Below are positions 3,528 through 46,790 of a DNA stretch of 64,000 nucleotides, in pieces. The notes under the pieces are model-generated. The model made no database searches, had not been told where the DNA came from, and saw nothing but the letters and a program-made list of their open reading frames with translations. The position numbers and the translations under genes were made by a program. How positions within the stretch are numbered: position 1 is the first letter of the stretch; every line of letters begins with the position of its first letter. Source of the stretch: Minisyncoccia bacterium (GTDB lineage: Bacteria; Patescibacteriota; Minisyncoccia; Phycocordibacterales; UBA918); the NCBI GenBank assembly GCA_046598345.1, contig JBKJIT010000003.1, positions 73,023 to 137,022 on the forward strand, in the 5' to 3' direction.

Positions 3528-5000
3528 TTAGCAGCAAGCACCGTGTTTTTTTTGCAATTCCTGTATTGCCATAGTCTCCTCTTCATCTCGCTTCTGTTTC
3601 CCTGCTTCTCCAAGCTGAATAAGGGCTTCAAGCGGTAATGCCATTAGCTCCACTGCCCTTTTTTCCATATATTCCTCTGTGTTTTTTCCTGGATCCTCCA
3701 AAACCTCTTCTAAGAGTGCATGGAGGGTGTGTCCGAGTTTAGGTCCGGGTTTCTCCCCAGATAATTCCATGATACGCGAACCATCAATCTTGAGCATTTT
3801 GACGGAGATAGGGTCGCGGAGAGCCTGCTCTACCATGGCGGTGTACTTCCGGAGACGAAGTGGCTGCTCTTTCGGCCTTCCTGTCCCAATTCGATCACAG
3901 CGCCTGAGTTGAAGGAGTTCCCATATGTGCTCTTCTCCCACATTTGCAATTGTCCGTCGAACTGCTGAGAGTGTGACTTGATCGGGGTCGCTAAAAAACA
4001 TGTGCCACCGGACGAGCTTCACCACTTTTTCAATGGTTTCACGTGGAAACTTGAGGTCCTGAAGTGCTTTTTTCGTGACCCGTGCCCCTACGACCTCATG
4101 TCCATGGAACGTCCAATCCTTCTTTTCATCAGACCATCGCCTTGTCTCGGGTTTTGAGACATCGTGAAACAATCCCGCCAACCGAACGTCGAAATGCCAG
4201 TCTTTGTCAGCGGCATGTTGCATGGTGCGAAGTAAATGCTCGTATACGTCAAACGCATGAGCCTGATTTTGCTCAATTCCAATTCCCCGCAGCAGATCTG
4301 GGGCTATATGCTTGAGTAAACCTAATTTCTCGAGGAAGATGATCCCCTGCATAGGGTGTTTTGAGCTTAGAATACGGCTAAATTCGTCGCGAATGCGCTC
4401 TTTTGATATCCGAGCTAAGTTATCACCCACTGCGGCAATGGCTGTAAGCGTATCCCCTTCTATAACGAAGTCTAATTCGACGGCGAGCCGCACAGCACGC
4501 ATCATACGGAGTGCATCTTCACTGAAGCGCTCTGCTGCATTCCCTACCGCTCTGATCCTTTTATCTTGAATATCGCGTATTCCTTCGAAGAGATCCACTG
4601 TTTTTTCCCCCTCCAACCTAAAAGCAATGGCGTTCACCGTAAAGTCTCGTCGTTTCAGGTCTTCTTCGAGGGACACACCAAATTCTACTGAGTCAGGGCG
4701 TCGGGCATCAGAATATACCGATTCGGTTCGGTATGGGGTCACTTCCACCACTTTCAAGGCTGGATTTTCTGTTTCTGACACTACGCCTACTGTGCCGAAG
4801 TCATTATTGAGGTATGTTTCCGGAAACAAGGAGACAATTTCTGTAGGATGCGCGTTTGTCGTTATATCCCAATCCTTTGGCTCCTTACCAATAAGAAGAT
4901 CTCGCACACACCCTCCAACTAGGTAGGCTTCATATCCCCCTTTCTCTAGGGTATCCGCAATATGTTGCACTTCTTTTGGTATATCACTCCGGACAATCAT
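3528..5000 (-). CDS. cca: CCA-adding tRNA nucleotidyltransferase with HD domain
   Basis: GGCVRDLLIGKEPKDWDITT polymerase-beta head motif, plus a C-terminal HD domain. The likely start is MIVRSD at 5000. The longer ORF, extending to 5150, would overlap tRNA-Arg. Confidence 0.85.
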   Translation of the reverse strand: MIVRSDIPKEVQHIADTLEKGGYEAYLVGGCVRDLLIGKEPKDWDITTNAHPTEIVSLFPETYLNNDFGTVGVVSETENPALKVVEVTPYRTESVYSDARRPDSVEFGVSLEEDLKRRDFTVNAIAFRLEGEKTVDLFEGIRDIQDKRIRAVGNAAERFSEDALRMMRAVRLAVELDFVIEGDTLTAIAAVGDNLARISKERIRDEFSRILSSKHPMQGIIFLEKLGLLKHIAPDLLRGIGIEQNQAHAFDVYEHLLRTMQHAADKDWHFDVRLAGLFHDVSKPETRRWSDEKKDWTFHGHEVVGARVTKKALQDLKFPRETIEKVVKLVRWHMFFSDPDQVTLSAVRRTIANVGEEHIWELLQLRRCDRIGTGRPKEQPLRLRKYTAMVEQALRDPISVKMLKIDGSRIMELSGEKPGPKLGHTLHALLEEVLEDPGKNTEEYMEKRAVELMALPLEALIQLGEAGKQKRDEEETMAIQELQKKHGACC

Positions 5001-5077
5001 GCTACCGATTGTAGCAGACTTTTCATACTTTTTCGTTGCAAATTCTAGCTTTAAAACGTATGATACGTCGACATTTT

Positions 5078-5149
5078 GCACCCATAGTGAAATGGATATC
5101 ATTTTTGACTTCGGATCAAACGTTCCAGGTTCGAGTCCTGGTGGGTGCA
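5078..5149 (+). tRNA. tRNA-Arg(TCG)
   Basis: Hand-folded: acceptor GCACCCA/TGGGTGC, D-stem GTGA/TCAT, anticodon stem TTTGA/TCAAA with loop CTTCGGA (anticodon TCG), T-arm CCAGG-TTCGAGT-CCTGG, discriminator A. CCA is not encoded. Confidence 0.85.
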
Positions 5150-5156
5150 CACGAGC

Positions 5157-5196
5157 AAAACAAAACCAGCATTCTCAGGAATGCTGGTTTTGTTTT
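5157..5196 (+). terminator. Hairpin terminator after tRNA-Arg
   Basis: aaaacaaaaccagcattc tcag gaatgctggttttgtttt, a perfect inverted repeat. Confidence 0.65.
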
Positions 5197-5241
5197 AGAG
5201 ACAGAAAGACTTCTGTCTCGGCTCGTGTGCAAGACGGAGCG

Positions 5242-5325
5242 TTATTTTCTTTCCTCACAGAAAGAAAATCGCGAGTCAGGGCAGGAGGTTCTTAGTGAGC
5301 AAAGCGAACTTAGAAACCTGCGCCA
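5242..5325 (+). repeat. Repeat family 2, copy A: stem GATTTTCTTTC/GAAAGAAAAT, then CGCGAG-TCAGGGCAGGAGG-TTCTTAG...CTTAGAAACCTGCG
   Basis: About 70% identical, with conserved blocks, to 11453-11507 (+) and 14412-14466 (-). The GGTT/AACC stem covaries among copies. Confidence 0.7.
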
Positions 5326-5360
5326 CCAAGTGCAAGGCGTAGTAATGTTTTTTAACTACA

Positions 5361-5389
5361 TTGCCTTCCCCTCTCCCCCATACTATAAT
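5361..5389 (+). promoter_or_regulatory. Promoter TTGCCT-17-TATAAT for tRNA-Gly(GCC)
   Basis: TTGCCT at 5361-5366, TATAAT at 5384-5389, about 18 nt upstream of the tRNA 5' end. Confidence 0.55.
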
Positions 5390-5407
5390 CTCTTCACAAT
5401 TTGAATT

Positions 5408-5478
5408 GCGGCCATGGTTAAATGGTATAACGAGTCCTTGCCAAGGATTAGTTGGGAGTTCGATTCTCCCTGGCCGCA
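5408..5478 (+). tRNA. tRNA-Gly(GCC)
   Basis: Acceptor GCGGCCA/TGGCCGC, D-arm GTTA-AATGGTA-TAAC, anticodon stem AGTCC/GGATT with loop TTGCCAA (anticodon GCC), T-arm GGGAG-TTCGATT-CTCCC. Confidence 0.85.
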
Positions 5479-5564
5479 CTAGGATAAGAAAAACTGGGCC
5501 TCGTGCCCGGTTTTTCGTATCCTTGCTGGAGAATCGAAAAGGTTGTCGATAATTCCGACTACAA

Positions 5565-5606
5565 GGAAGAAAGTATCATACAACCTGAACAGGTCCTGCA
5601 AGGACC
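5565..5606 (+). repeat. Repeat family 1, copy c5: GAAAGTATCATACAACCTGAACAG-GTCC-TGCAA-GGAC
   Basis: It shares the GAAAAGTATC...CAACCTG(A/T)AC(A/T)G-stem-TG(T)AA-stem' architecture with 11361-11432, 11521-11575, 44281-44340 and 46727-46790. The stems differ in a compensatory way. Confidence 0.65.
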
Positions 5607-5835
5607 GGCTCTCCCTGGGCGCCAAAATTAAAAACAACCACATCCAGACACAACTGTTGAAAACTGGGGAGAAGTAAGTTGATATGTGTATAAAGGACAA
5701 TTTGTAAAAGTCGTGTTGTCCTTAATATATGGCGTATAGACTTGATATGATAAGGTTTACTCTAGTTTTTAATGCTTGAATAGGTGTTTCACGTGGAACG
5801 TGTTTCCCATGAAACATATGTAGTAAGGTATATCC

Positions 5836-6231
5836 ATGGCTATACATAATACTATTGGAAGACTCGGGGAAGATTTGGCTGCCGACTGGCTCCGAAGGAA
5901 GGGTTTTACCATTGTTTCATGCAATTACAGACAAAAGTGGGGGGAGATTGATATTATCGCTAAAATGGATGGGCGTACTCACTTTTGTGAAGTGAAGACC
6001 GTTTCATATGAAACCATGTCTTTACTCGAGTATGCTGTTTCACATGGAACTTGGAGACCAGAGGAAAAGGTTGATTCGTATAAGCTTAAAAAATTCGCGA
6101 GAACAGTGGAAACTTGGCTTTCTGAAAATAAATACTTAGGTTCTTGGCAGATTGATGTTATTGCAGTGCGAATGGTTCCACGTGAAAAGCACGCAAGAAT
6201 AACAATAATCGAAAACGTGATTATTGAATGA
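5836..6231 (+). CDS. YraN/UPF0102 family endonuclease
   Basis: GEDLAADWLRRKGFTIVSCNYRQKWGEIDIIAKMDGRTHFCEVKT, the UPF0102 signature. Confidence 0.8.
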   Translation: MAIHNTIGRLGEDLAADWLRRKGFTIVSCNYRQKWGEIDIIAKMDGRTHFCEVKTVSYETMSLLEYAVSHGTWRPEEKVDSYKLKKFARTVETWLSENKYLGSWQIDVIAVRMVPREKHARITIIENVIIE

Positions 6232-6246
6232 TTCCACGTGAAACAT

Positions 6247-6867
6247 CTATTTCTGAAGCAATTTCTGAATATCTTCGATAATTTCAGGGAATGTGGGTGA
6301 ATTGAAGTGTCCTCTGTCCTTAAATAAGATATATTCAGCTTTTGGTAGGGCTATGTGATACTTTTCTCCATGTGAATAGGGAACGCAGTCATCGTCTTTT
6401 GAGTGATAAATAACGATGTTTTCGGTGTTCTTGTAGATATCTACAAGCTTAGAGGGGTCAGGGTTAAAATCCCCACCGTCCTCGCCACCGAAATTATCTG
6501 GCTCAAAGGGTGCTGCAACGAGATACAGTTTCCGAATAGGGAAAGGCGTTTGGTTTTCTGAAAGGTATTTTGCAAGAAAATACGCCCCCTGTGAGTGTCC
6601 TATAAGGATTATTTCCCCATTTATTAGCTCAAAATAACGCTCGAACCAGATTTTCCATTCGATATAGCGCGCGTTTTGTGTGTTGGGCATGGATGGATAA
6701 AAGACATCACACGTTGACCCAAATTCTTCTCTCAGTGTTTCTTTCCATTTTTTTCGCTTCAAAATACCAAAAAAATCATCAATTGGCTCTGTTCTTAGGT
6801 TTTCTAAGAACATTTCATAGTTTCGGTACGCTGTGCCTCCATGGATGTAGACGATTTGAGTTTTCAT
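6247..6867 (-). CDS. Alpha/beta hydrolase fold serine hydrolase
   Basis: GHSQGAYF nucleophile elbow (G-x-S-x-G). The size and layout fit small esterase/RBBP9-like hydrolases. Confidence 0.55.
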   Translation of the reverse strand: MKTQIVYIHGGTAYRNYEMFLENLRTEPIDDFFGILKRKKWKETLREEFGSTCDVFYPSMPNTQNARYIEWKIWFERYFELINGEIILIGHSQGAYFLAKYLSENQTPFPIRKLYLVAAPFEPDNFGGEDGGDFNPDPSKLVDIYKNTENIVIYHSKDDDCVPYSHGEKYHIALPKAEYILFKDRGHFNSPTFPEIIEDIQKLLQK

Positions 6868-6936
6868 CTAACCATAATACGAAACAATCCTGACTTTGTC
6901 AGGATTGTTTCGTATTCTGATTGAGAGTGGACTCTT

Positions 6937-6983
6937 TCATTTTAGTGTCTTCGTCCTGATATGGGTCGGGGAGCAGGGAATCT
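6937..6983 (-). repeat. Partial duplicate of the tRNA-Pro 3' end plus downstream flank (att-like direct repeat)
   Basis: ttcattttagtgtcttcgtcctgatatgggtcggggagcagggaatc versus 7279-7325 ttcattttggtgtctttgtcctaacctgggtcggggagcagggaatc. About 48 bp with about 6 mismatches, 342 bp apart. Confidence 0.7.
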
Positions 6984-7056
6984 TTCCTTACATTAACAGT
7001 CTAGGTTGTATGACCATTTCTTTCAGAAATGTTCGACAACCTTTTCGATTCCCTTG

Positions 7057-7104
7057 CGACAATAACAATAAAGACCGGCATAAGCCGGCCATTATTGTTA
7101 TTGT
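7057..7104. repeat. Long near-perfect hairpin (about 20-bp stem)
   Basis: gacaataacaataa-agaccggc-ataa-gccggcc-attattgttattgtc. Confidence 0.6.
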
Positions 7105-7307
7105 CGGGGAGATCGGGTGAGAAAGTACGGGGTACTTTCGCAAGAGCCTGACCACACCTTTCTTCGAAAGCCACAACAATTTTCTTACAGAAACTGTCTA
7201 CTTACATGATTTTGTTCATACTATTCACAAAATCGTTGTAAGTCTTGCGTTGCAAAGCAACTCACCCAGATTGTTGGTTCATTTTGGTGTCTTTGTCCTA
7301 ACCTGGG

Positions 7308-7378
7308 TCGGGGAGCAGGGAATCGAACCCTGACCACACGGTCCCAAACCGCGTACACTACCACTATGCTACACCCCG
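7308..7378 (-). tRNA. tRNA-Pro(TGG)
   Basis: The reverse complement folds as follows. Acceptor CGGGGTG/CTCCCCG, with one U-U mismatch at 6-67. D-arm GCAT-AGTGGTA-GTGT. Anticodon stem CGCGG/CCGTG with loop TTTGGGA. T-arm CAGGG-TTCGATT-CCCTG. Confidence 0.75.
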
Positions 7379-7423
7379 ACCCAAACTGGGACGAGATCTA
7401 GAACCAAGACACCAAAATGAACC

Positions 7424-7459
7424 CCAAACCGCGTACACTACCACTATGCTACACCCCGA
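7424..7459 (-). repeat. Perfect 36-bp duplicate of the tRNA-Pro 5' half
   Basis: cccaaaccgcgtacactaccactatgctacaccccga is identical to 7344-7379. It lies 80 bp upstream of the gene in the tRNA sense. An 18-bp inverted repeat, ggttcattttggtgtctt/aagacaccaaaatgaacc, also flanks the tRNA at 7276-7294 and 7405-7423. Confidence 0.75.
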
Positions 7460-7487
7460 TGTAGCGAGAGAAGTCGCAAAGTAAAGG

Positions 7488-7549
7488 CATTTTTACCGGA
7501 ATGTCTGAAAATAAAGCTTGTTTAATTTTCAGACATTCCGGTAAAAATG
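7488..7549. promoter_or_regulatory. 25-bp perfect inverted repeat with a 12-nt loop, upstream of the ECF sigma gene
   Basis: catttttaccggaatgtctgaaaat-aaagcttgttta-attttcagacattccggtaaaaatg. ORF 7501-7710 spans it and is probably spurious. Confidence 0.6.
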
Positions 7550-7774
7550 AGCATGTTCAGCATGCGCACTTTGCGATTTCCGAGCGAAGAAGGGTTGTAT
7601 CGCAGATACACCCACACCCCTCTATTGGTCAAAAAGCGATTCTTCTTGACGGCGAAATAATACCATCGACTCACGAAATATGCGAATCGGTGCCAGAGGC
7701 CTTGACATGAGCACTGTCATATTTCACTGAAAGAAGTCGGCTTTTTAACCGTCTTCGATTATAATGGTTTCCAC

Positions 7775-8371
7775 ATGGGCAGAGAACCAGAAAAACCACG
7801 TCGGAAACCGACAGGCGACCAAGAAGGAAGCCAAGAGGAGCGTTTTTTGAAAGCGTTTGATGAGTACGTAGACGCGCTCTATCGCCACTCGTCATTTCGG
7901 TTGGCTGATAAAGAACGATCTATTGAGCTCGTGCATGACACCTTCACCAAAGTGTGGGGATACATTCGTGCCGGGCATACCATTGATTCATACAAGCCCT
8001 TTTTGTATAAGGTGCTCAACAATCTTGTAATTGATGAGTATCGTCGTAAAAAGGATGTCTCTCTCGACTCGCTTCTTGCTGAAGAGGGGAAGAGTGAGAG
8101 TTCATTTGATGAGCTCCACGAGGGTTCGATCGAAGAAGTCGTCTTTGGACTTGATGCGAAGAAAGCGGTCGTACTTATCCATGAATTACCACACACGTAT
8201 CGTGAGGTGATCACACTCCGTTATATTGACGGCTTAGGTCCAAAAGAGATCAGCGTCCTCATCGAGGAGACCGAGAATGTTGTGTCGGTACGAATTCATC
8301 GAGCGCTCCGGTTACTTCGGGAACGGATCGAACTTTTGGAAGAAAAATCCAGACGAAAACGAAATGTATAG
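7775..8371 (+). CDS. ECF-type RNA polymerase sigma factor (sigma-24 family)
   Basis: Region 2 (DTFTKVWGYIRAG...YKPFLYKVLNNLVIDEYRRK) and region 4 (EVITLRYIDGLGPKEISVLIEETENVVSVRIHRALRLLRE). A TATAAT box lies 12 nt upstream. A possible ECF-like motif, TGAAAG-N15-CCGTCT, sits at about 7731-7757. Confidence 0.85.
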   Translation: MGREPEKPRRKPTGDQEGSQEERFLKAFDEYVDALYRHSSFRLADKERSIELVHDTFTKVWGYIRAGHTIDSYKPFLYKVLNNLVIDEYRRKKDVSLDSLLAEEGKSESSFDELHEGSIEEVVFGLDAKKAVVLIHELPHTYREVITLRYIDGLGPKEISVLIEETENVVSVRIHRALRLLRERIELLEEKSRRKRNV

Positions 8372-8374
8372 ACT

Positions 8375-9721
8375 ATGAAATCTTTTGATTCTGATGTAAA
8401 AAAATATTCTGAAAAAATACACTTGAGTGTATCTGAACGCCGCGCACTTCGCGAGCGTGTTGTTTCGTATATGGAGTACCATCCACTTGCAAAAGAGGAG
8501 GGGGCTTCATCGTATGCTTTTACTGAAAAATATGTCCTCCTTTCTTTTAATACATTCTGGACAAGAATTGCATCCGGAGCTGCACTCCTTTTACTTATTG
8601 TAGGTATTCCAGTTGCGGCTGAGCGTGCAGTGCCGGGAGATGTTCTCTATTTTGTAAAAACTGAAGTGAATGAAAGTATTCAGTCACAGTTTGCTGATTC
8701 ACCGTACGAAAAAATTGCTTTTGAAACAAAACTCATTGATCGACGTATTGATGAAGCACGTCTTCTTGCAAGTGAAGGGAAACTCACGAAGGAAGTAGAA
8801 GCTTCGATTGCGGAAGATGTAAAAGATCACGCAGAGGCCGCGCAAGATGGCCTTGCAGAACTTCGAACGAATGATGCTGAGGGAGCTGTTATTGCTGAGG
8901 TTACCCTAGGTTCCGCCCTTGAGGTGCAGTCTGCTGTACTCGACACAAATACGAGCGTATCAGCCACATCGTCAATTGAAAATATCTTGGGTGCAGTAAA
9001 TACTGCACGTGAAGAAATTGAGCAGAATCAGAGCACTACCACTTCTGTTACGGTGCTCACGAGTGAAATTGAAGAAGCAACAACTCGCGCGTACGAATTA
9101 TTTGAAACGGTGAAGGAATCAGCTACCAAAGAGGAGGAACGAGATATCAACCGGCGCCTTTCTGATATTGATCGACAAATAGTTGCGGCTAATAAACTTC
9201 GCAATCGTGACGAAGAGGCCGCGGTGAATGAACTCAAGGAGGTACTCGGACTTCTTCAAAAACTTATTGTATTCATGACTGATATTGATGTGAGTGAGAC
9301 GGTTACGCTTGAGGCACTTGTACCTATCGTACCGACGATTGAAGAGCATGTAGCAAGCACACGGGCTACACTTGCACGTGTGGCTACGACTGCAAGTATT
9401 ATTGAGAAGCGAACCTCCTTTGTTTCTGATGCTTCTGTGCAGGAAAAGGTGTTGCTAGGTCTCGAAGCAGTAGCAGCTCTCTCTGACGATGTACTAGTAC
9501 GGCTTTCGAGTGAAGAACCTGATATGGAAGGTATTCTGAAGCAACTCTTTGAAGCCGAAGCTCTCGTACAAGACCTTGAAAAAATGACTCTCGAAACAAT
9601 CATTTCAGACGAAGAGAGTACGAAGTTTCCAACACCAGTCATTCCCGGAGAAACGAGTACCAGTAGCTCATCCACGACCATAGAAGCTACACTTCCGCTC
9701 CCAATCTTTGTGGCAGAATAA
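8375..9721 (+). CDS. Putative anti-sigma factor: single-pass membrane protein with an extracytoplasmic coiled-coil/Ser-Thr-rich domain
   Basis: It starts 4 nt after the sigma gene. It has a ~65-aa cytoplasmic N-terminus, one TM helix (ALLLLIVGIPVAA), then a long helical low-complexity ectodomain. This is the classic ECF anti-sigma architecture, but the family was not recognised. Confidence 0.5.
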   Translation: MKSFDSDVKKYSEKIHLSVSERRALRERVVSYMEYHPLAKEEGASSYAFTEKYVLLSFNTFWTRIASGAALLLLIVGIPVAAERAVPGDVLYFVKTEVNESIQSQFADSPYEKIAFETKLIDRRIDEARLLASEGKLTKEVEASIAEDVKDHAEAAQDGLAELRTNDAEGAVIAEVTLGSALEVQSAVLDTNTSVSATSSIENILGAVNTAREEIEQNQSTTTSVTVLTSEIEEATTRAYELFETVKESATKEEERDINRRLSDIDRQIVAANKLRNRDEEAAVNELKEVLGLLQKLIVFMTDIDVSETVTLEALVPIVPTIEEHVASTRATLARVATTASIIEKRTSFVSDASVQEKVLLGLEAVAALSDDVLVRLSSEEPDMEGILKQLFEAEALVQDLEKMTLETIISDEESTKFPTPVIPGETSTSSSSTTIEATLPLPIFVAE

Positions 9722-9765
9722 TACATACTAAAAACGCGACCGTACGGTCGCGTTTTTAGTATGTA
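9722..9765. terminator. Bidirectional perfect hairpin terminator
   Basis: atacatactaaaaacgcgaccgtacggtcgcgtttttagtatgtat, between convergent genes. Confidence 0.7.
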
Positions 9766-10941
9766 TTATTCTGTCTTTTCCCCCGCGAGAAGCTCTTCGG
9801 TGAGCAACTTAGCGAGAAATGGAGTAAGTGCACCTTTAAATACATCTCCACGGTAGGCAAGATCGCCCTGCATATTGTCGCGAAGTGAATACCCGGTTTC
9901 TTCAATAATCGTTCTATTTATGTATGAAACAGTAATGGCATGGAGACTGTATTGACCCTCAGTCTCTTCGTTACCCTTTGTCACAATAAGCCCAATTACG
10001 TCGCCACTTTCTCGTGCAATCGGACCACCGGAGGCTCCCTGAGCACCAACGGGGGATTCTGATACTGAAAAAATATCAGCGTAGTTACTGCCGAATGTGT
10101 AAAGCTCACGTAAGGTCGTCGAAGCAATGACAGGAACAAGTCTTGCACGGGCGCCCTCACGGAACAATGCCTCGGCAGGATAGCCAGAGGTCAGGATTGA
10201 AATACCCTTTGTATGAATGGAAAGTAAATCAGTATCCAGTGTAAGGGAGGGGAATGTTTCGGGCAGGGTTCTGTCTTTTAGGGGTTCGGAAACATAGAGG
10301 AGAGCATAGTCACGTTCCCCCGTGCCACGCGGGGTTTCTTCCGCAATGAGGGCGGCATTTTCATAGACCCACATAGGTGAAAGGTACAACAGTTCTGCGT
10401 GGTAGGTCGGTACCGCAGGATTTCCGGTACGAACAATACATTCAGCATCGATTACATCCTCATCGTTTCCTTCAAGAAGTAGAAATTGTGCAACGTGTGC
10501 ATTGGTGAGGATGACTCCTTTTTTGTTGATGAAAAATCCAGTGCCTGTCGTCGTGCGAATATACTCGTCAGTTTTATACTGGCAAAAAATATTTACCAAT
10601 GATTCTTCTATTTGATTTCGCACCGGTGTATCTGAAGGGGTGGGGGTAAATTCTTCTCCGAGTGCTGCCGCGCTCTGTGCCGCCTGTAAGTATGCATCAT
10701 TGGTGCGAATAAGACTCAAGATTTCCGTGGTAAGCGACGTAGTGAGTTGCTTGCTCAGGTTCTTTAGTTCTTCTGAGGCTGTGATACGTGTCGGTTCTTC
10801 GTCAATGCTGACAGATTGTGCGGGTGGAGTCTCTTCAAGTTCTGCAATACGAATCACCTGATCAGCGACGATGTTCGTAAAAGCGAGGTATGCAACGAGA
10901 ACTGACGAAATAAAACTACCGAGGAACTCGAACATAACCAT
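9766..10941 (-). CDS. Membrane-anchored trypsin-like (S1 family, HtrA/DegS-like) serine protease, no PDZ domain
   Basis: N-terminal TM helix. GTGFFINKKGVILTNAHV for the His region, and GASGGPIARESGDVIGLIVT for the catalytic Ser motif GxSGGP. Confidence 0.75.
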   Translation of the reverse strand: MVMFEFLGSFISSVLVAYLAFTNIVADQVIRIAELEETPPAQSVSIDEEPTRITASEELKNLSKQLTTSLTTEILSLIRTNDAYLQAAQSAAALGEEFTPTPSDTPVRNQIEESLVNIFCQYKTDEYIRTTTGTGFFINKKGVILTNAHVAQFLLLEGNDEDVIDAECIVRTGNPAVPTYHAELLYLSPMWVYENAALIAEETPRGTGERDYALLYVSEPLKDRTLPETFPSLTLDTDLLSIHTKGISILTSGYPAEALFREGARARLVPVIASTTLRELYTFGSNYADIFSVSESPVGAQGASGGPIARESGDVIGLIVTKGNEETEGQYSLHAITVSYINRTIIEETGYSLRDNMQGDLAYRGDVFKGALTPFLAKLLTEELLAGEKTE

Positions 10942-11203
10942 ATTGATTTCATAGTAGCATGTGAGTGCTGCTAAAAATGGCTCAGGCTGGGGGTTTAATC
11001 TGGAGGCCTAATATGCTAGAATCATCCGGACTTCTAAAAGAGTTGTGGACGGGTGTATGACAAGCATACAACCGCCCAGTTCGCAGAAATGATGCAAAAG
11101 GAAGCACCGCTTCCGTAAGACTTCCATTATTTCACATGAAAGCAAGCTTTCCTTTGAAATAACGGTAGCCTTACCAGCTACTTTTGCATCATCCTACTCA
11201 CTT

Positions 11204-11274
11204 GCGGGTGTAGTTTAGTGGTAAAACGACTGCCTTCCAAGCAGTAGTTGGGGGTTCGATTCCTCTCGCCCGCA
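11204..11274 (+). tRNA. tRNA-Gly(TCC)
   Basis: Acceptor GCGGGTG/CGCCCGC, D-arm GTTT-AGTGGTA-AAAC, anticodon stem ACTGC/GCAGT with loop CTTCCAA, T-arm GGGGG-TTCGATT-CCTCT. Confidence 0.85.
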
Positions 11275-11318
11275 CACATACGAAAAACCGTCCTATAGGA
11301 CGGTTTTTCGTATGTGTG
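11273..11318 (+). terminator. Perfect hairpin terminator after tRNA-Gly(TCC)
   Basis: cacacatacgaaaaaccgtcc-tata-ggacggtttttcgtatgtgtg. Confidence 0.7.
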
Positions 11319-11360
11319 CGGGCGAAGCAATGTGCAAAATGCACATTGCGTGAGGAATCG

Positions 11361-11432
11361 AAGCTGTTGCGAGATATCTTTTTGAGTGAAACGATGAAAA
11401 GTATCCGCAACGGGTACTGAAACTGTAAGTTT
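11361..11432 (+). repeat. Repeat family 1, copy c3: stem GATATCTTTTT/GAAAAGTATC, then CGCAACGGGTACTGA-AACT-GTAA-GTTT
   Basis: Aligned with c1, c2, c4 and c5. It is immediately followed by a tRNA 3' fragment. Confidence 0.65.
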
Positions 11433-11447
11433 CGATTCCTCTCGCCC
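11431..11447 (+). repeat. Partial duplicate of the tRNA-Gly(TCC) 3' end (ttcgattcctctcgccc)
   Basis: 17/17 identical to 11256-11272, the T-loop and 3' acceptor of the intact tRNA, about 175 bp downstream. Confidence 0.7.
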
Positions 11448-11452
11448 TAAAC

Positions 11453-11507
11453 CGCGAGGTCGGGTAGGGAGTTCTTAGCAAGCGTAGCTAGCTTAGAAAC
11501 TTGACGC
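11453..11507 (+). repeat. Repeat family 2, copy B: CGCGAGGTCGGGTAGGGAG-TTCTTAG-CAAGCGTAGCTAG-CTTAGAAAC-TTGACGCCA
   Basis: It aligns block by block with 5269-5325 and with the minus strand of 14412-14466. Confidence 0.7.
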
Positions 11508-11520
11508 CAAAACTTTTTAT

Positions 11521-11575
11521 GAGCGAAGAGAACCAAAATATCGACAACCTGTACTGATCCTGTAAGGATCGATTC
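11521..11575 (+). repeat. Repeat family 1, copy c1: GAGCGAAGAGAACCAAAATATCGACAACCTGTACTGA-GATCC-TGTAA-GGATC
   Basis: See the family 1 alignment. Confidence 0.65.
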
Positions 11576-11615
11576 ATGTTTTATAAAAAAGCCGCCACTT
11601 TCATGGCGGCCGGGA

Positions 11616-11906
11616 CTACGGGGTTGGAAGATCCTTTATTCGAAGATGTTCAGGCAGTTGTGGACCGACTTCCTTGAATATTTCCATACAAGACTGAGCA
11701 CTGGTCTTGAGTTGGTCAAGGTTTATGGGGGCTGACTGTGCATTGAGGTTTGGCTTCTGAAACCCAAATGGGTCTTCAAGGTACTCCAGTCCGCGCACTG
11801 CTTCCTCACCAATCTTGATGGTGGTGGGAACAGTTGAATTCGCCCCAGGGCCAGGATCAACATAATTCCATCGTATAGCGTCTACTGTTAGGTCGTTTTC
11901 CATCAT
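11616..11906 (-). CDS. Hypothetical small protein
   Basis: A 96-aa ORF with no recognisable motif. Flanked by terminator-like hairpins. Confidence 0.35.
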   Translation of the reverse strand: MMENDLTVDAIRWNYVDPGPGANSTVPTTIKIGEEAVRGLEYLEDPFGFQKPNLNAQSAPINLDQLKTSAQSCMEIFKEVGPQLPEHLRIKDLPTP

Positions 11907-12132
11907 GTACTCCTCTGTATGCCAACCAGCAGTATCTCATATACTTTCATTATTATCACAGCAAAAAGCCCCTTGCGGGGCTTTTTGCTGTGATGGGATT
12001 AGCGGATGTATATCCGTGGTTTCCCACGTTGTATATATAGCGAGAGTTTGGGTACATGACCAAACTCAGTTAATACCTCCGCTACAAAAAAAGTATATCA
12101 TGTTCATGAAGTCGAGCTAGTGTGTATAACAT

Positions 12133-12167
12133 AAAAGAACGGCGAGCCGTAGGCTCGCCGTTCTTTT
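12133..12167 (-). terminator. Hairpin terminator after hup
   Basis: aaaagaacggcgagccgtaggctcgccgttctttt. Confidence 0.7.
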
Positions 12168-12178
12168 AAAAGGAGTGA

Positions 12179-12451
12179 TTACTTAACTGCATCCTTGAGT
12201 GCCTTTGCTGCGCGGAACTTTGGAACGCGCATTGCAGGAATATCAATAGTTTCGCCAGTGCGTGGATTTCGCCCAGTGCGTGCATTACGTGTCTTTGTTG
12301 AGAAAATCCCAAGACCCGCAACAGAAACTTCCTGACCCTTTTTGAGTGAAGCGACGATGCAATCAATCGCAGTCTCCACTGCGCGCTCTGCATCTGCACG
12401 AGTGCCACCGACAACCTCGTGAACCTTGTTGATTATGTCTGCCTTATTCAT
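12179..12451 (-). CDS. hup: DNA-binding protein HU
   Basis: MNKADIINKVHEVVGGTRADAERAVETAIDCIVASLKKGQEVSVAGLGIFSTKTRNARTGRNPRTGETIDIPAMRVPKFRAAKALKDAV, the canonical HU/IHF fold sequence. Confidence 0.92.
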   Translation of the reverse strand: MNKADIINKVHEVVGGTRADAERAVETAIDCIVASLKKGQEVSVAGLGIFSTKTRNARTGRNPRTGETIDIPAMRVPKFRAAKALKDAVK

Positions 12452-12602
12452 ACTGTATAAAATGTGTACTTAGGGCGTGTAAATAATATGTGTGCACTCT
12501 ACATGATGCCAAGATATGGCTACAAACAATTATATAGCAGGGTTTTTGCAGTGCAATACACTATCGCACACATCTAAAATGTGGTGTAGTTTTAATGGTG
12601 CT

Positions 12603-12646
12603 TGAAAACAACGGCCGCTTCTTTTGGAAGCGTCCGTTGTTTTCAA
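12603..12646 (-). terminator. Hairpin terminator after rny
   Basis: gaaaacaacggccgcttc-tttt-ggaagcgtccgttgttttcaag. Confidence 0.65.
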
Positions 12647-12650
12647 GCTT

Positions 12651-14177
12651 TTACTTTGCGTATTCGATTGCGCGGGACTCTCGAATGACATTAACTTTAA
12701 TTTCTCCCGGGTACCGTAGCTTCTCTTCAATGTCTGTCGCGATGCTGCGAGCGAGATTGTGGGCCTCGAGATCGGTCACCTTTTCAGGGTTTACTATGAC
12801 TCGTACCTCTCGTCCAGCCTGAATTGCGAATGCTTTCTCAACCCCTGGCATAGAGAGTGCAATTTCTTCGAGCTCACCCAGACGTTTTATGTAGTTCTCA
12901 ATGGAATCATGGCGTGCACCGGGACGACCTCCTGAAATCGCATCAGCGACCTGCACGATGATCGATTCCGGTGTGTCATACGGGTATTCTTCATGATGGG
13001 CGCGCATTGCGACAATGACTGCCTGATCCACTTCGTACTTTTGTAGGATCCGAATACCAATTTCAACGTGTGTCCCTTGCACCTCCTGGCTCACGGTCTT
13101 TCCAATATCGTGGAGGAGAGCTCCTGCACGTGCGACCGCTACATCCGCGCCCACTTCCTCAGCAATAATTGCCGCGATGTGCGCCATTTCAACAGAGTGC
13201 CAGAGCACGTTCTGTCCATAACTTGTTCTAAAATGCAGCCGTCCGAGGATTTTCACGAGATCAGGGTGAAGGTTAGGTACTCCTGCATCAAAACATGCTT
13301 TTTCACCCATCTTTCGAACAATAGTTCCAACCTCTTTCCGTGCCTTCTCAACGATCTCCTCGATCTTTGCCGGCTGAATACGTCCATCGGCGAGAAGGAG
13401 CTCAAGTGCGACGCGAGCAATTTCGCGACGCACCGGATCAAATGAAGATAGGGTGATGTGTCCTGGAGTATCGTCAATAAGCACGTCAACACCCGTCGCA
13501 CGCTCAAAGGCACGAACGTTCCGACCTTCCTTTCCGATGATTTTCCCCTTTACCTCTTCATTCGGAAGCGCGATCATCGAACTCATGATGTCGACTCGCA
13601 CAGAATTACCAATGCGATGTATCGCTGAGGTGATGATTTCTTTTGCTTTTTCGTCGTACTGTTCCTCGCCGCGCATGCTCATTTTCTGAATGCGCTTCAT
13701 GATGTTCACCTCATATTCCTTTTCAATATTCGCAACGACCCGTTCGTAGGCCTCGTCCTTGGTGAGTCCGGCAACTTCTTCAACTTTCTTTTCTATTTCA
13801 CCCTTTCGTTCATCGAGTTGAACCTTGATTTCTTTAACCTGCTCAATTTTTTGACGCACCGATTCAACCTCGGAATCGAGATCCATTTGGCGTTTATCGA
13901 GAAGTTCGTCCTTACGTATGTGGCGCTCTTCAGCCTTATTTAACTTTTCTTCCTGTTCCTTAAATCGTTCCTTCAGTTCTTTCTCCAGTGATTCGGCCTT
14001 CGTTTCTGCTTTTTCTAATATCTTGAGTGCTTTTGCTTCAGCATCGACAAGTTTTTCCTTAAGGGAAAGTTCAAGCGACTCTTTCTTGCTGAGTGCATAG
14101 ACATATCGGAGATAGTATCCCAAAGCAATACCGACAAGCCCTGCGACAATAAGCGCAAAGATTACGGAAAGTGGCAT
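12651..14177 (-). CDS. rny: Ribonuclease Y
   Basis: N-terminal TM helix, a long coiled coil, a KH domain (KGKIIGKEGRNVRAFERATGVDVLIDD) and an HD domain (ALLHDIGK). Confidence 0.9.
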   Translation of the reverse strand: MPLSVIFALIVAGLVGIALGYYLRYVYALSKKESLELSLKEKLVDAEAKALKILEKAETKAESLEKELKERFKEQEEKLNKAEERHIRKDELLDKRQMDLDSEVESVRQKIEQVKEIKVQLDERKGEIEKKVEEVAGLTKDEAYERVVANIEKEYEVNIMKRIQKMSMRGEEQYDEKAKEIITSAIHRIGNSVRVDIMSSMIALPNEEVKGKIIGKEGRNVRAFERATGVDVLIDDTPGHITLSSFDPVRREIARVALELLLADGRIQPAKIEEIVEKARKEVGTIVRKMGEKACFDAGVPNLHPDLVKILGRLHFRTSYGQNVLWHSVEMAHIAAIIAEEVGADVAVARAGALLHDIGKTVSQEVQGTHVEIGIRILQKYEVDQAVIVAMRAHHEEYPYDTPESIIVQVADAISGGRPGARHDSIENYIKRLGELEEIALSMPGVEKAFAIQAGREVRVIVNPEKVTDLEAHNLARSIATDIEEKLRYPGEIKVNVIRESRAIEYAK

Positions 14178-14348
14178 ACAAATGTGTGTTCAGGCAATGC
14201 ACTCAGGGGTTAGTGTCGAGGGAAGGGTCGTTCAGAATGAGCGCAAAGCCAGACGGTAAAATTTATCAATAATCGACTTTCTCACAGTAACAGAAGTTAT
14301 GAAGACTGTCTAATTCCGTCATGAAGGAGACAGTAATCCATTTTCTCT

Positions 14349-14387
14349 AAAAAACCTGACGGAACCTGGGGGTTCCGTCAGGGTTTT
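14349..14387 (-). terminator. Perfect hairpin terminator downstream of clpP
   Basis: aaaaacctgacggaacc-tggg-ggttccgtcagggttttt. Confidence 0.7.
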
Positions 14388-14411
14388 TAGGTTACTTTAG
14401 TATCTCGTCTA

Positions 14412-14466
14412 CAACGCAGGTTTGTAACTCGCTACGCTCCTAACAACCTCCTGTCCTGCCTCACGG
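14412..14466 (-). repeat. Repeat family 2, copy M (minus strand): CCGTGAGGCAGGACAGGAGG-TTGTTAG-GAGCGTAGCGAG-TTACAAACCTGCG
   Basis: Reverse complement of plus 14412-14466. It lies in the clpP 3' region, enclosed by a 13-bp stem (14399-14413 and 14505-14519). Confidence 0.65.
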
Positions 14467-14528
14467 TTTTTGCCATTGTGAGAGGCAAAACAACGCTCCG
14501 GCTCTTAGTAGACGAGATTTTAAAGTAC

Positions 14529-15149
14529 TTACTTTAAAATTTCGTCAACCAAGCCATATTTCTTAGCTTCGTCGGCGCTCATGAAGAAGTCGCGGTCTGT
14601 ATCCTTTTCAATCTGTGCAAGCGGCTTTCCTGAAGCCTTAGCAAGCATTTTGTTTAGTTGATCACGTGTCTTAAGGATATGACGAGCAGTAATTTCAATA
14701 TCTGATGCCTGCCCTTGAGTTCCTCCCCACGGCTGGTGAATCATGACTTCTGCATTAGGAAGACAGCTTCGCTTTCCTTTTGCACCTTGTGAAAGAATAA
14801 TAGAACCCATTGACGCTGCCATTCCAACACAGACAGTCGCAATGTCGGGCTTCACGTGGTTCATGGTGTCCACGATTCCAAGGCCCGCGCTCACTGATCC
14901 ACCAGGTGAGTTCACATACATAAATATGTCTTTCTTGGGATCTTCTGCTTCAAGGAAGAGAAGCTGTGCTACCACCAAGTTAGCCATATGATCGTCAATC
15001 GCTCCGGTTACAAAGACAATACGCTCTTTAAGGAGGCGGGAGAAGATGTCATACGCACGCTCACCTCCTTGGGTCTTTTCGACCACCATCGGTACGAGGA
15101 AGTTATTAATTTGATTGTTATTTTGAGATTCTTTTGATTGCATATACAT
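14529..15149 (-). CDS. clpP: ATP-dependent Clp protease proteolytic subunit
   Basis: [30 protein letters not shown]...[37 protein letters not shown], a canonical ClpP. Confidence 0.92.
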
Positions 15150-15922: not shown

Positions 15923-17206
15923 CTAATTTATTTCCTCCAGCTTCTTCATCACGGCGTCGTTCATGAGGATGGATTCGACGTATACGCGAACTCGCTTTTC
16001 ATCGGCGTCTTTGTATTGCTCAAGGAGACGAGAAACTTCTTGGTCAACAAGGCTTGGGTCTGGTTTAATGCTTTCTCTTTCTGCGATGGCATTGAGCACA
16101 AGCTGGAGTTTTGCGCGTTTTTCCGCAGAGGGGGTCCACTCTTTTTTCAAGTCTTCCTTTGTCTTCTTAATATGACCGAGGTAATCATCTATCTTGAGTT
16201 GTGCACGAGTGAGGTCGTCTTCCATCTGCGCGAACATTTGGTTCATTTCTCCATCAATCATGATCTGAGGGATTTCTACTGTCGTTTTCTCAATGATGGC
16301 ATCAGTAATTTTTGCTCGGTGAGCAGAATCAACTGACTGGACCTTCTGAACTGCAAGGTGTTCCTTGAGCTTCGTTTTAAAATCAGAAACGGTTTCAAAC
16401 TGACCAGGCTTACCTAGTGTTTTTACGTATTCGTCGGTGAGCTCCGGAAGAATTAGTTCGCCCTTGTCATCTCGAGGAATTTGCCCCAGGGCACCCTCTC
16501 TGACTTCGTCATGGCCCAGGCCAGCTTCTCTATCTTCGATATTCACCTCCTTCACCTTGTCTTCGTCAGCATCATGGTCATCATGCGAGTGATCATGGTG
16601 TACATGATCATGTTCACCATGATCGCCGTGATCATGGTTGTGTCCCTCGTGATTGGCATGATTGTCGTGGTCGTGGGTGTGCGTATCGCCAGTAGTTTGT
16701 GCTTTGGATTGCATACGCTCGTACGCTACTTTTTGCCGTAGAATATCATTTACTTGCTTTTCCACTTCTTCCTCAGTGACTTCTTTAGATTCTTTATTCG
16801 CATTAACTTCCTTTGCAAGCTTTTCGTAGTCGGGAAGGGTGACTGGAGGTACTACCGCAACGGTTGCGGTGAAGCCGAGTGGGTTATCTTTGGCAATTTT
16901 CGTTATCTGAATCTGCGGGTAGCCGATTGCGTCGAGTTTGTGTTCTTTTACGATCTCCGCGTACGCTTCATAGAGCGCACGTTCTGCCATTTCACTTAAC
17001 ACATTCATTTCGCCCACCTTTTGGATGAGGATATTTTCAGGAATGTGGCCTTTTCGAAATCCCGGCATGTCCATGTCTTTTCCGATTGCTTTGAGAGCAG
17101 CTCCCCGATGCTTCTCTACAACTGAAAAGGGGATTTCACCCGTAATTTTTACGGTTGATTTTTCTCCGGGCTCAACGTGTATCTTCTTCAATTCTTCAGA
17201 TGTCAT
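15923..17206 (-). CDS. tig: Trigger factor with the PPIase domain replaced by a His/Asp-rich segment
   Basis: N-domain ribosome-binding motif GFRKGHIP, and a C-terminal TF chaperone domain. The middle region is HTHDHDNHANHEGHNHDHGDHGEHDHVHHDHSHDDHDADED instead of an FKBP domain. Confidence 0.8.
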   Translation of the reverse strand: MTSEELKKIHVEPGEKSTVKITGEIPFSVVEKHRGAALKAIGKDMDMPGFRKGHIPENILIQKVGEMNVLSEMAERALYEAYAEIVKEHKLDAIGYPQIQITKIAKDNPLGFTATVAVVPPVTLPDYEKLAKEVNANKESKEVTEEEVEKQVNDILRQKVAYERMQSKAQTTGDTHTHDHDNHANHEGHNHDHGDHGEHDHVHHDHSHDDHDADEDKVKEVNIEDREAGLGHDEVREGALGQIPRDDKGELILPELTDEYVKTLGKPGQFETVSDFKTKLKEHLAVQKVQSVDSAHRAKITDAIIEKTTVEIPQIMIDGEMNQMFAQMEDDLTRAQLKIDDYLGHIKKTKEDLKKEWTPSAEKRAKLQLVLNAIAERESIKPDPSLVDQEVSRLLEQYKDADEKRVRVYVESILMNDAVMKKLEEIN

Positions 17207-44280: not shown

Positions 44281-44340
44281 GATATTTCTTGAGTTTACGA
44301 AAGAAAATATCATCAAGGTGTACTGAACCTGTAAGGTTTG
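44281..44340 (+). repeat. Repeat family 1, copy c2 in the fusA leader: GATATTTC...GAAAATATC stem + CATCAAGGTGTACTGA-ACC-TGTAA-GGT
   Basis: See the family 1 alignment. Confidence 0.65.
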
Positions 44341-46726: not shown

Positions 46727-46790
46727 GTTTTATTTTGTCATACAACCTGAACAGCGTCTGTAAGACGGGAAGGATGTTCAGGACGAAGCA
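46727..46790 (+). repeat. Repeat family 1, copy c4: TTATTTTGTCATACAACCTGAACAG-CGTC-TGTAA-GACG, nested in a CCTGAACA/TGTTCAGG stem
   Basis: See the family 1 alignment. Confidence 0.6.

Follow-up and report, generated by a model that had tools for sequence, protein, structure and literature searches.

Three copies of a structured repeat in a Minisyncoccia genome

The DNA analyzed here is a 64-kb window (the whole stretch of 64,000 nucleotides at positions 73,023 to 137,022, forward strand, of contig JBKJIT010000003.1) from the Minisyncoccia bacterium assembly GCA_046598345.1. It contains a structured element, called family 2, in the trailers of two tRNA genes and in the 3' untranslated region (UTR) of clpP. 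A preliminary description of the window had reported a repeat of ~55 nt in three copies that align block for block. These copies are real, since a covariance model built from alignment A4 (96 distinct related cores) has exactly 3 matches in the window: copy 1, a complete core, at 5230-5325 (+) (78.8 bits, E = 1e-16); copy 2, with a degenerate 5' half, at 11401-11509 (+) (59.9 bits); and copy 3, a complete core in the clpP 3' UTR, at 14412-14505 (-) (52.5 bits). A degenerate 24-nt repeat pattern is observed at least twice, with 0.06 occurrences in the window expected by chance. The length had been underestimated. Copies 1 and 3 share ~40 nt upstream of the start noted before (GAGCCGGAGCGTTGT, a hairpin and CCGYGAG), and therefore the unit has ~95 nt, its 5' half having been missed. 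The stem at 5242-5268, described as preceding copy 1, does exist, being an integral hairpin of the element (P2) that is also found in copy 3. Its supposed counterpart at 11370-11404 is not homologous and belongs to a unit of another repeat, family 1. The window copies are Saccharibacteria-type variants.

Copy 1 trails the tRNA-Arg(tcg) gene (5078-5150, +; ARAGORN and Rfam). Its arm A (5233-5277) comprises a C-stem (5233-35/5275-77), a GA/GA motif, an NC-stem (5239-41/5270-72) and the P2 hairpin (5244-69). Arm B (5280-5324) comprises GGC/GCC, AGGTT/AACCT, CTTAG/CTTAG and an apical TGAG..CGAA motif. The 5' flank, GCTCGTGTGCA (5221-31), partners the genuine tRNA-Arg 3' end and trailer, TGCACACGAGC (5146-56), in a long stem (5146-5231, +) that is predicted from the sequence and from the minimum free energy (MFE) fold. 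This stem surrounds two hairpins, one that resembles an intrinsic terminator (5157-96, +) and one named H (5197-5219, +). On the 3' side of the core, only GTGCA of the tRNA-Arg end recurs. The MFE fold of 5078-5345 has z = -9.7; another pairing in it, between the tRNA-Arg acceptor strand and the 3' flank, has only 5 bp, is unsupported by L124 (L numbers designate loci fetched for comparison) and was not used. The next gene, tRNA-Gly(gcc) (5408-5479, +; ARAGORN), has a promoter-like site (5361-5389, +; TTGCCT-17-TATAAT, 10/12 matches), which is the downstream limit of the tRNA-Arg/copy 1 unit.

Copy 2 trails tRNA-Gly(tcc) (11204-11275, +; ARAGORN and Rfam). A perfect 30/30 palindrome (11266-11325, +; a 100% complementary inverted repeat), made up of the 3' end of tRNA-Gly with a terminator and an anti-acceptor strand, is followed by a family 1 unit (11327-11447, +) identified by sequence. 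This unit begins with its own hairpin H (11327-49, +) and continues with GAGGAATCGAA (11352-62, +), the exact reverse complement of tRNA-Gly T54-T64, then a long hairpin and GTACTGAAACTGTAAGTTTC. It is closed by CGATTCCTCTCGCCC (11433-47, +), a copy of tRNA-Gly C56-C70, which is the tRNA-Gly 3' fragment that had already been recognized near copy 2. The well-conserved 3' two-thirds of copy 2 (11450-11509, +) contain all of arm B (11463-11508) and, from arm A, the 3' strand, CCGCGAGGTC, and the model aligns a degenerate 5' strand at 11401-11412. Complete orthologues were found after tRNA-Gly(tcc) at the same syntenic site in four loci (L084, L080, L104 and L100). Copy 2 is an old tRNA-Gly(tcc)-linked copy, partly overwritten, with the 5' half replaced by the family 1 unit. 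The co-location of tRNA 3' fragments with a second repeat family agrees with the composite modular unit suggested in the preliminary description.

On the minus strand, copy 3 lies between the clpP stop codon (14529-31; ORF 14529-15149) and an intrinsic terminator (14355-14382). It has arm A at 14502-14458, arm B at 14455-14413 and the P2 hairpin at 14466-14491. As previously noticed, it is enclosed by a stem: TCTCGTCTAC (14517-08) pairs with GTAGACGAGA (14412-03), forming a closing helix P1 of 10 bp around the core (14403-14517). This helix has no recognised tRNA origin, and the fold has z = -4.6. Orthologues of copy 3 are found directly after clpP in L007, L073/L108 and L084, where ClpP is 70-88% identical, and P1 is kept through compensatory changes in L084 and L108. 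The conserved position agrees with the structured 3'-UTR element proposed before. Gene content and similarity assign the window to a Saccharibacteria genome. A locus from a metagenome-assembled genome (MAG), L007, shares gene order with the window and has 88% identity in ClpP, 85% in RNase Y and 92% in HU; the window ClpP has no identical protein on record. Since both the clpP and the tRNA-Gly(tcc) copies occupy orthologous sites in relatives with this level of ClpP divergence, they were retained for a long time.

Family size and distribution

The wide distribution of the family, its systematic connection with tRNA and transfer-messenger RNA (tmRNA) genes through the T-arm and the 3' end, and its RtT-like architecture were all absent from the preliminary description. 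A first 26-nt degenerate pattern, scanned against one genome per species, matched 14 genomes. Thirteen are MAGs of the Candidate Phyla Radiation (CPR), from Saccharibacteria (10), Kaiserbacteria (2) and Paceibacterota (1). The remaining match (Aidingimonas) is due to chance and is not recognised by the later covariance model. A second pattern, AGGARGTTCTTAG-N10-40-CTTAGAAACYTG, constrained arm B alone and matched at least 120 metagenome contigs; the 5' half, free in this pattern, is conserved in nearly all of the metagenome matches listed. No match to the arm B pattern was found in the viral contigs scanned.

In the fetched loci (~0.75 Mb), the covariance model recovered 160 matches (83 + 77, E < 0.01), or 163 with the three of the window, so that the search of the window and relatives did reveal additional copies. 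Several matches per locus are common and some are in tandem, with arrays in L102, L122 and L132. The core varies roughly from 90 to 120 nt across the family.

The lack of an Rfam counterpart, judged by eye in the preliminary description, was corroborated with Rfam 15. There was nothing over the three copies in the full window at the gathering threshold. At E <= 10, the region 5000-15000 gave tRNAs and chance microRNA-like matches on palindromes, the three copies being unmatched. Neither Rfam 15 nor the searchable literature, explored by topic and by conserved sequence strings, yielded a description of the element. On balance, we are inclined to see the family as previously uncatalogued, CPR-wide structured RNA modules in tRNA/tmRNA trailers and occasionally in mRNA 3' UTRs, here that of clpP.

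Core structure and covariation

The 96 distinct cores of alignment A4 were aligned with MAFFT and the consensus was obtained with RNAalifold, which was run without the covariance model and recovers the helices first derived by eye. The core is a junction of two arms, each with an invariant GA/GA motif. In arm A, the outer part has a 3-bp stem (columns 4-6/74-76), one bulged G and an invariant GA opposite an invariant GA, and the inner part has a second 3-bp stem (10-12/69-71), a bulged A and the hairpin P2, of variable length. Arm B starts with GGG/CCC (79-81/151-153), an internal loop AGG/GA(C), AAGTT/AACTT and a bulged A. Next come CTTAG/CTTAG, where a U.U mismatch is found, and at the apex a YGAR/YGAR motif, again of GA/GA type, before a tip that varies. 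From their sequences, the GA/GA motifs appear to be tandem sheared G.A pairs.

Compensatory changes occur in 12 of the 21 consensus pairs. Paired cells amount to 96.4% (81.4% in shuffles) and double-change cells to 328 (88 in shuffles). The covariation score of 0.441, against 0.159 when shuffled, is reached by 0/500 shuffles, and the controls with slid partners stay at or below 0.076. The pairs with the highest mutual information are predicted pairs. Within the consensus pairs there are 72 G.U/U.G and 12 A.C/C.A combinations, and this excess of G.U over A.C indicates that the structured strand is the one in tRNA orientation, as expected for RNA. The search pattern had fixed columns 82-94 and 137-147, so their invariance is partly ascertainment. 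One R/Y pair was left free in the pattern, with all four combinations allowed, and it is A-U in 72, G-C in 24 and broken in 0 of the 96 cores, which bears out the covarying closing helix (AGGTT/AACCT versus AGTT/AACT) reported from the window copies.

A smaller variation was seen in the linker between the arms. Column 77 of A4 is A instead of C in 9/96 sequences, including window copy 1, and the sequences with this linker A are without the A of the arm B 3' internal loop (columns 149-150; CTG-CGCC versus TTGACCCC). Judging from the sequences, this exchange may be a swapped tertiary contact.

Association with tRNA and tmRNA genes

Instances were eligible for this analysis if the contig extended at least 380 nt upstream of them. 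Of the 101 eligible instances, 59 have a tRNA or tmRNA gene on their strand that ends within 300 nt upstream, compared with 5% for random positions in the same loci. The upstream partners include 16 tRNA identities and tmRNA. In 30 of those 59 instances, an exact copy (at least 12 nt) of the instance's own tRNA is found directly 3' of the core, after ...TTGACCC. It starts at C56 (20 cases) or T55 (6 cases) and extends through the 3' strand of the T-stem, the 3' strand of the acceptor and the discriminator, sometimes including 2-48 nt of trailer. On the other side, 47/67 have, directly 5' of the core, a stretch of at least 7 nt that is exactly reverse-complementary to T54-N65 of their own tRNA and ends in ...TCGAA. 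This anti-T-arm flank has a mean length of 8.7 nt (4.8 nt in shuffles), and a complement of the acceptor 3' strand with at least 6 nt is also present in 27/67. In the common form, the 5' anti-T-arm flank and the 3' tRNA-copy flank make up the closing helix P1, which is often extended by an additional anti-acceptor and a hairpin into a cloverleaf-like, tRNA-like handle.

Paceibacterota-type units have the order tRNA, terminator-like hairpin, anti-acceptor, hairpin H, anti-T-arm, GAAAG, core and tRNA 3' copy. L102 has two tandem copies of a 187-nt unit, whose fold (z = -7.3) is cloverleaf-like and consists of an acceptor-like stem, hairpin H, P1 and both arms. The anti-acceptor of this same locus pairs with the genomic trailer (AAAA) and not with CCA, which rules out priming by mature tRNA with a 5' flank resembling a primer-binding site. 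In L080 and L100, the core and P1 are retained and the acceptor part of the tRNA copy has decayed, which points to selection on the core plus P1.

The 3' ends of the genes and of the copies differ. None of the 27 element-adjacent tRNA genes (loci L004-L132 and the window) encodes CCA at positions 74-76, where 17 have CAA; CCA completion must therefore be post-transcriptional. Among the tRNA copies, 7/27 have CCA at these positions, and they are 7 of the 10 copies in which the match to the gene ends at nucleotide 74. The encoded CCA is either a selected tRNA-like 3' end or the result of copies having passed through CCA-tailed RNA.

Comparison with RtT RNA and other known systems

The tyrT/tyrV region of E. 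coli K-12 (L135), whose rttR and 178-bp repeats correspond to RtT RNA, was fetched and scanned with Rfam and with our covariance model. Rfam detects four RtT units (RF00391, 133-138 bits), each ending in 19 nt that correspond to tRNA-Tyr A58..CCA. In the Rfam consensus, the closing helix is formed by this tRNA-Tyr 3' segment and the upstream GGGGAAGGAU, which is identical at 13/15 positions to the reverse complement of tRNA-Tyr T54-C68. RtT RNA is reported to take part in the processing of the tyrT transcript and likely to modulate the stringent response, with an unknown mode of action (10.1101/2024.07.17.603846).

The CPR family and RtT are alike in several aspects. In both, the units immediately follow a tRNA gene, share its strand and may be repeated in tandem. 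Both end in an exact tRNA 3' copy that begins in the T-loop (A58..CCA in RtT, from T55/C56 on in CPR), which pairs as a closing helix with an upstream near-complement of the T-arm, and in both this helix encloses a GA-rich, multi-branched core of ~90-100 nt. A 13-mer, CGAGCGAAGCGAG, forming a small hairpin with apparent tandem G.A, is found in RtT and in the P2 of several CPR members (among them L118, L041 and L109), a likeness that could reflect convergence or common ancestry. There are also differences. RtT at the E. coli locus follows tRNA-Tyr, whereas the CPR family follows at least 16 tRNA identities and tmRNA and occurs in the clpP 3' UTR. In many CPR copies, unlike RtT, a terminator hairpin and additional hairpins separate the core from the tRNA. 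RF00391 (gathering score 45 bits) had no match in the full window at the gathering threshold or in 5000-15000 at E <= 10, and the CPR model reached at most 2.7 bits on the E. coli tyrT locus. Regarding the window copies, 1 and 2 are downstream of a same-strand tRNA and copy 3, in the clpP 3' UTR, is the exception; a tRNA 3' fragment is found only at 11433-47, next to copy 2, with just GTGCA retained at copy 1 and nothing of the kind at copy 3.

Integrases are known to have a sublocation preference within tRNA and tmRNA genes. The attL/attR sites of integrase islands share with the CPR family the direct repeat of the t(m)RNA 3' end from the T-loop and the use of both tRNA and tmRNA genes. In contrast to those islands, the CPR insert has only ~130-190 bp with no ORF, uses many tRNAs, and its core has an inverted copy of the same tRNA segment on the other side. 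When 917 ORFs within 3 kb of the elements were clustered for signs of a recombinase, no family was found in more than 12 loci, not every ORF being domain-searched.

Other similarities concern the structure. As in the kink-turns of L7Ae-type sites, an invariant GA in each strand stands between covarying Watson-Crick stems, and the non-bulged strand likewise has the order stem-G-A-stem. A canonical kink-turn was discarded, the bulge being a single G (columns 7-9, 72-73) and not 3 nt, and the apical GA motif, unlike a kink-turn, is symmetric and without a bulge. tRNA-like handles for processing or replication are known from mascRNA, viral tRNA-like structures and the 3' end of the Mauriceville retroplasmid. 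As a lead only, some CPR copies resemble them in having an acceptor-like stem, a discriminator and an encoded CCA, but a two-arm core replaces the T-loop/elbow.

Several known RNAs were rejected. Self-cleaving ribozymes (hammerhead, twister, pistol, hatchet and HDV-like) had no Rfam match at E <= 10 in 5000-15000. Compared with the hammerhead core (CUGANGA + GAAA + UH), GAAAG is present at the junction, but CUGANGA is absent in most members, which have CUUGACC, and the would-be U16.1 is C. Signal recognition particle (SRP) RNA, 6S RNA, tmRNA and RNase P RNA gave no Rfam or ARAGORN match, and the element is multi-copy (3 in 64 kb), whereas those RNAs normally have one gene copy; the by-eye resemblance to SRP RNA, RNase P RNA and tmRNA is superficial. 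The group I introns in Patescibacteria tRNAs (PMC13011429) are at position 35/36 of the anticodon loop, would be caught by Rfam and are unrelated, and TIGR-Tas arrays (PMC12045711), with 36-nt units, show no resemblance.

Possible function and alternative explanations

Our best reading of these comparisons is that the CPR element would be an RtT-like tRNA-trailer RNA, with the same architecture and an unrelated core. A CPR-wide family of such modules is also the best overall explanation for the data, and we favor it with moderate confidence. Its copies would be transcribed by read-through of the tRNA terminator, giving a transcript with a tRNA-like handle. The handle (acceptor-like stem, discriminator and sometimes an encoded CCA) could recruit RNase P, 3' trimming and the CCA-adding enzyme, and these tRNA-maturation enzymes would excise and stabilise a discrete small RNA, whose GA-motif core might bind a conserved protein or RNA partner. 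New copies may arise by DNA-level duplication or by template switching on the tRNA T-arm. The perfect palindromes at 9714-9773 and 11266-11325, complementary through the apex, indicate that DNA-level template switching occurs in this genome.

Some observations weigh against this explanation. A terminator-like hairpin normally separates the tRNA (or clpP in relatives) from the core, so that the core can be transcribed only by read-through or from a promoter that was not seen. Considering the ORFs within 3 kb, no protein gene is consistently adjacent to the elements. A purely trans-acting small RNA does not require exact identity of its flanks to the neighboring tRNA, and at several loci this identity extends into the non-functional trailer (up to 66 nt in L029), which suggests a process acting at the DNA level. 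Homology between the two families is detected by neither of the models (Rfam RtT and CPR), and inside the window the only clear tRNA 3' fragment, at copy 2, is 5' of the conserved part.

An alternative is a miniature non-autonomous mobile DNA element, or its residue, inserting in the T-loops of t(m)RNA genes. As with integrase-borne islands, the gene would be regenerated and a displaced copy of the 3' end left behind, with the core serving mobility and not the host, and such an origin is compatible with the RNA reading. We consider it possible but rather unlikely. The direct repeats do begin in the T-loop, their left boundary being fixed (C56/T55) and their right one varying (18-66 nt), in tmRNA as well as in tRNA genes, and tandem arrays exist in L102, L122 and L132. 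The site also differs among syntenic relatives (the window has the element between tRNA-Arg and tRNA-Gly, whereas L008 and L086 have it after tRNA-Gly), a second unrelated core, family 1, has the same flank design and forms chimeras with family 2, and the palindromes testify to template switching at the DNA level. However, neither an integrase or transposase nor any other gene family is enriched within 3 kb, and the viral contigs gave zero matches. At least 17 different t(m)RNAs each have their own specific flanks, which a single sequence-specific recombinase would not explain. Mobility also does not account for orthologous copies kept at ~70% ClpP identity, for a core conserved while the acceptor copy decays (L080 and L100), or for wobble statistics that denote a strand-specific structure.

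It is improbable that the element is instead a cis-acting 3'-end block after the terminators of highly expressed genes, devoid of trans function, which would protect 3' ends from exonucleases, trap read-through or insulate the next gene. A roadblock would need neither near-invariant GA/GA motifs, AGGARGUUCUUAG and CUUAGAAAC across phylum-level divergence, nor a closing helix derived from tRNA, and an encoded CCA would be superfluous. The constant orientation of the element with, and its position downstream of, the upstream gene would suit this role, as would the terminator-like hairpins that usually bracket it, the location of the clpP 3'-UTR copy upstream of a strong terminator and the promoter-like site of the tRNA-Gly(gcc) after copy 1.

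A broader reading, which we regard as doubtful, would join RtT, the CPR core and family 1 in one general class built on the t(m)RNA T-arm, either a tRNA-templated selfish or retro-copied element or a tRNA 3'-end/starvation effector. In this class, inverted and direct copies of the T-arm and 3' end may close a GA-motif core. Propagation may involve a CCA-tailed tRNA-like RNA or template switching; alternatively, these may be conserved effectors in minimal-genome bacteria. If it is true, the encoded CCA in copies of CCA-less genes would be the footprint of an RNA intermediate.

The earlier suggestion that AGGAGG is a single-stranded anti-Shine-Dalgarno bait or a ribosome-binding decoy is hardly credible. 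AGGAGGU is indeed the sequence of the Saccharibacteria-type copies, but AGGAAG is found in three quarters of the family (72/96), the G/A position covaries perfectly with the opposite-strand C/U, most of the motif is inside a helix, and no conserved start codon or ORF follows it, the loops being variable in length and sequence. A small ORF was also discarded, the GTG located 6 nt after AGGAGG in copy 1 not being conserved.

Family 1 and other features of the window

Family 1, a repeat already present in the preliminary description, has the form …AGGTTGYCGA-hairpin-CAACCTGWACWG-N-CTGTAAG-N' and is a second CPR-wide module with the same design as family 2. Its sites in the window are 5521-5625 (+), 6985-7065 (-), 11352-11447 (+), 11536-11575 (+), 44320-44335 (+) and 46743-46764 (+), and it was also found in L008, L033, L040, L057, L064, L086, L099 and L106. 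On the 5' side, the flank is reverse-complementary to the T-arm of the adjacent tRNA (for instance GGAGAATCGAAAAG after tRNA-Gly(gcc) and GGGAATCGAAAAG after tRNA-Pro), and the 3' end runs into a tRNA copy from the T-loop onward. Chimeras of families 1 and 2 occur in L035 and L071.

ARAGORN found four tRNA genes and no tmRNA in the window. The one that is not mentioned above among the neighbors of the copies, tRNA-Pro(tgg) (7304-7379, -), shows two partial duplications. Its 3' end and trailer are duplicated ~340 nt downstream (6936-6982 versus 7278-7324; 47 nt, 89% identical), and its first 37 nt are duplicated 80 nt upstream with 100% identity (7343-7379 versus 7423-7459). The tRNA genes of the window are hot spots for partial duplication.

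Two loop-free perfect palindromes of 30/30 nt were found at terminators, one between convergent protein genes (9714-9773) and the other including the tRNA-Gly 3' end (11266-11325). That they are perfect through the apex implies template switching of the DNA in the recent past, and not an RNA hairpin under selection.

A gene for the CCA-adding enzyme is located beside the window tRNA-Arg, at about 3528-4990, inside the listed ORF 3528-5150 (-). The trigger factor of the window (15923-17206, -) has a His/Asp-rich insert, …HTHDHDNHANHEGHNHDHGDHGEHDHVHHDHSHDDHD…. In a few of the fetched loci, LAGLIDADG-like ORFs (…LGFIYADGNI…) are near the elements (L035:1693-2364, -; L132:765-1481, +); they probably mark intron/homing-endonuclease genes unrelated to the element.

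Significance

CPR bacteria (Patescibacteria) represent a large share of bacterial diversity and have minimal genomes, and to our knowledge almost no non-coding RNAs have been described in them. Saccharibacteria are now cultivable and transformable. What is new here is the CPR family, RtT-type tRNA-trailer RNAs being already known as a kind. This well-supported structured RNA has over 160 examples, covaries strongly and is absent from Rfam 15; a consensus and a covariance model are now delivered for it. The tRNA 3' fragments and long palindromes generated by its modules can mislead tRNA annotation, att-site prediction and the assembly of CPR MAGs. The family follows a clear genomic rule, in that it occupies a t(m)RNA trailer and is closed by the T-arm of that tRNA, and indicates that the RtT design is not an enterobacterial oddity and represents a recurrent solution in very distant bacteria.

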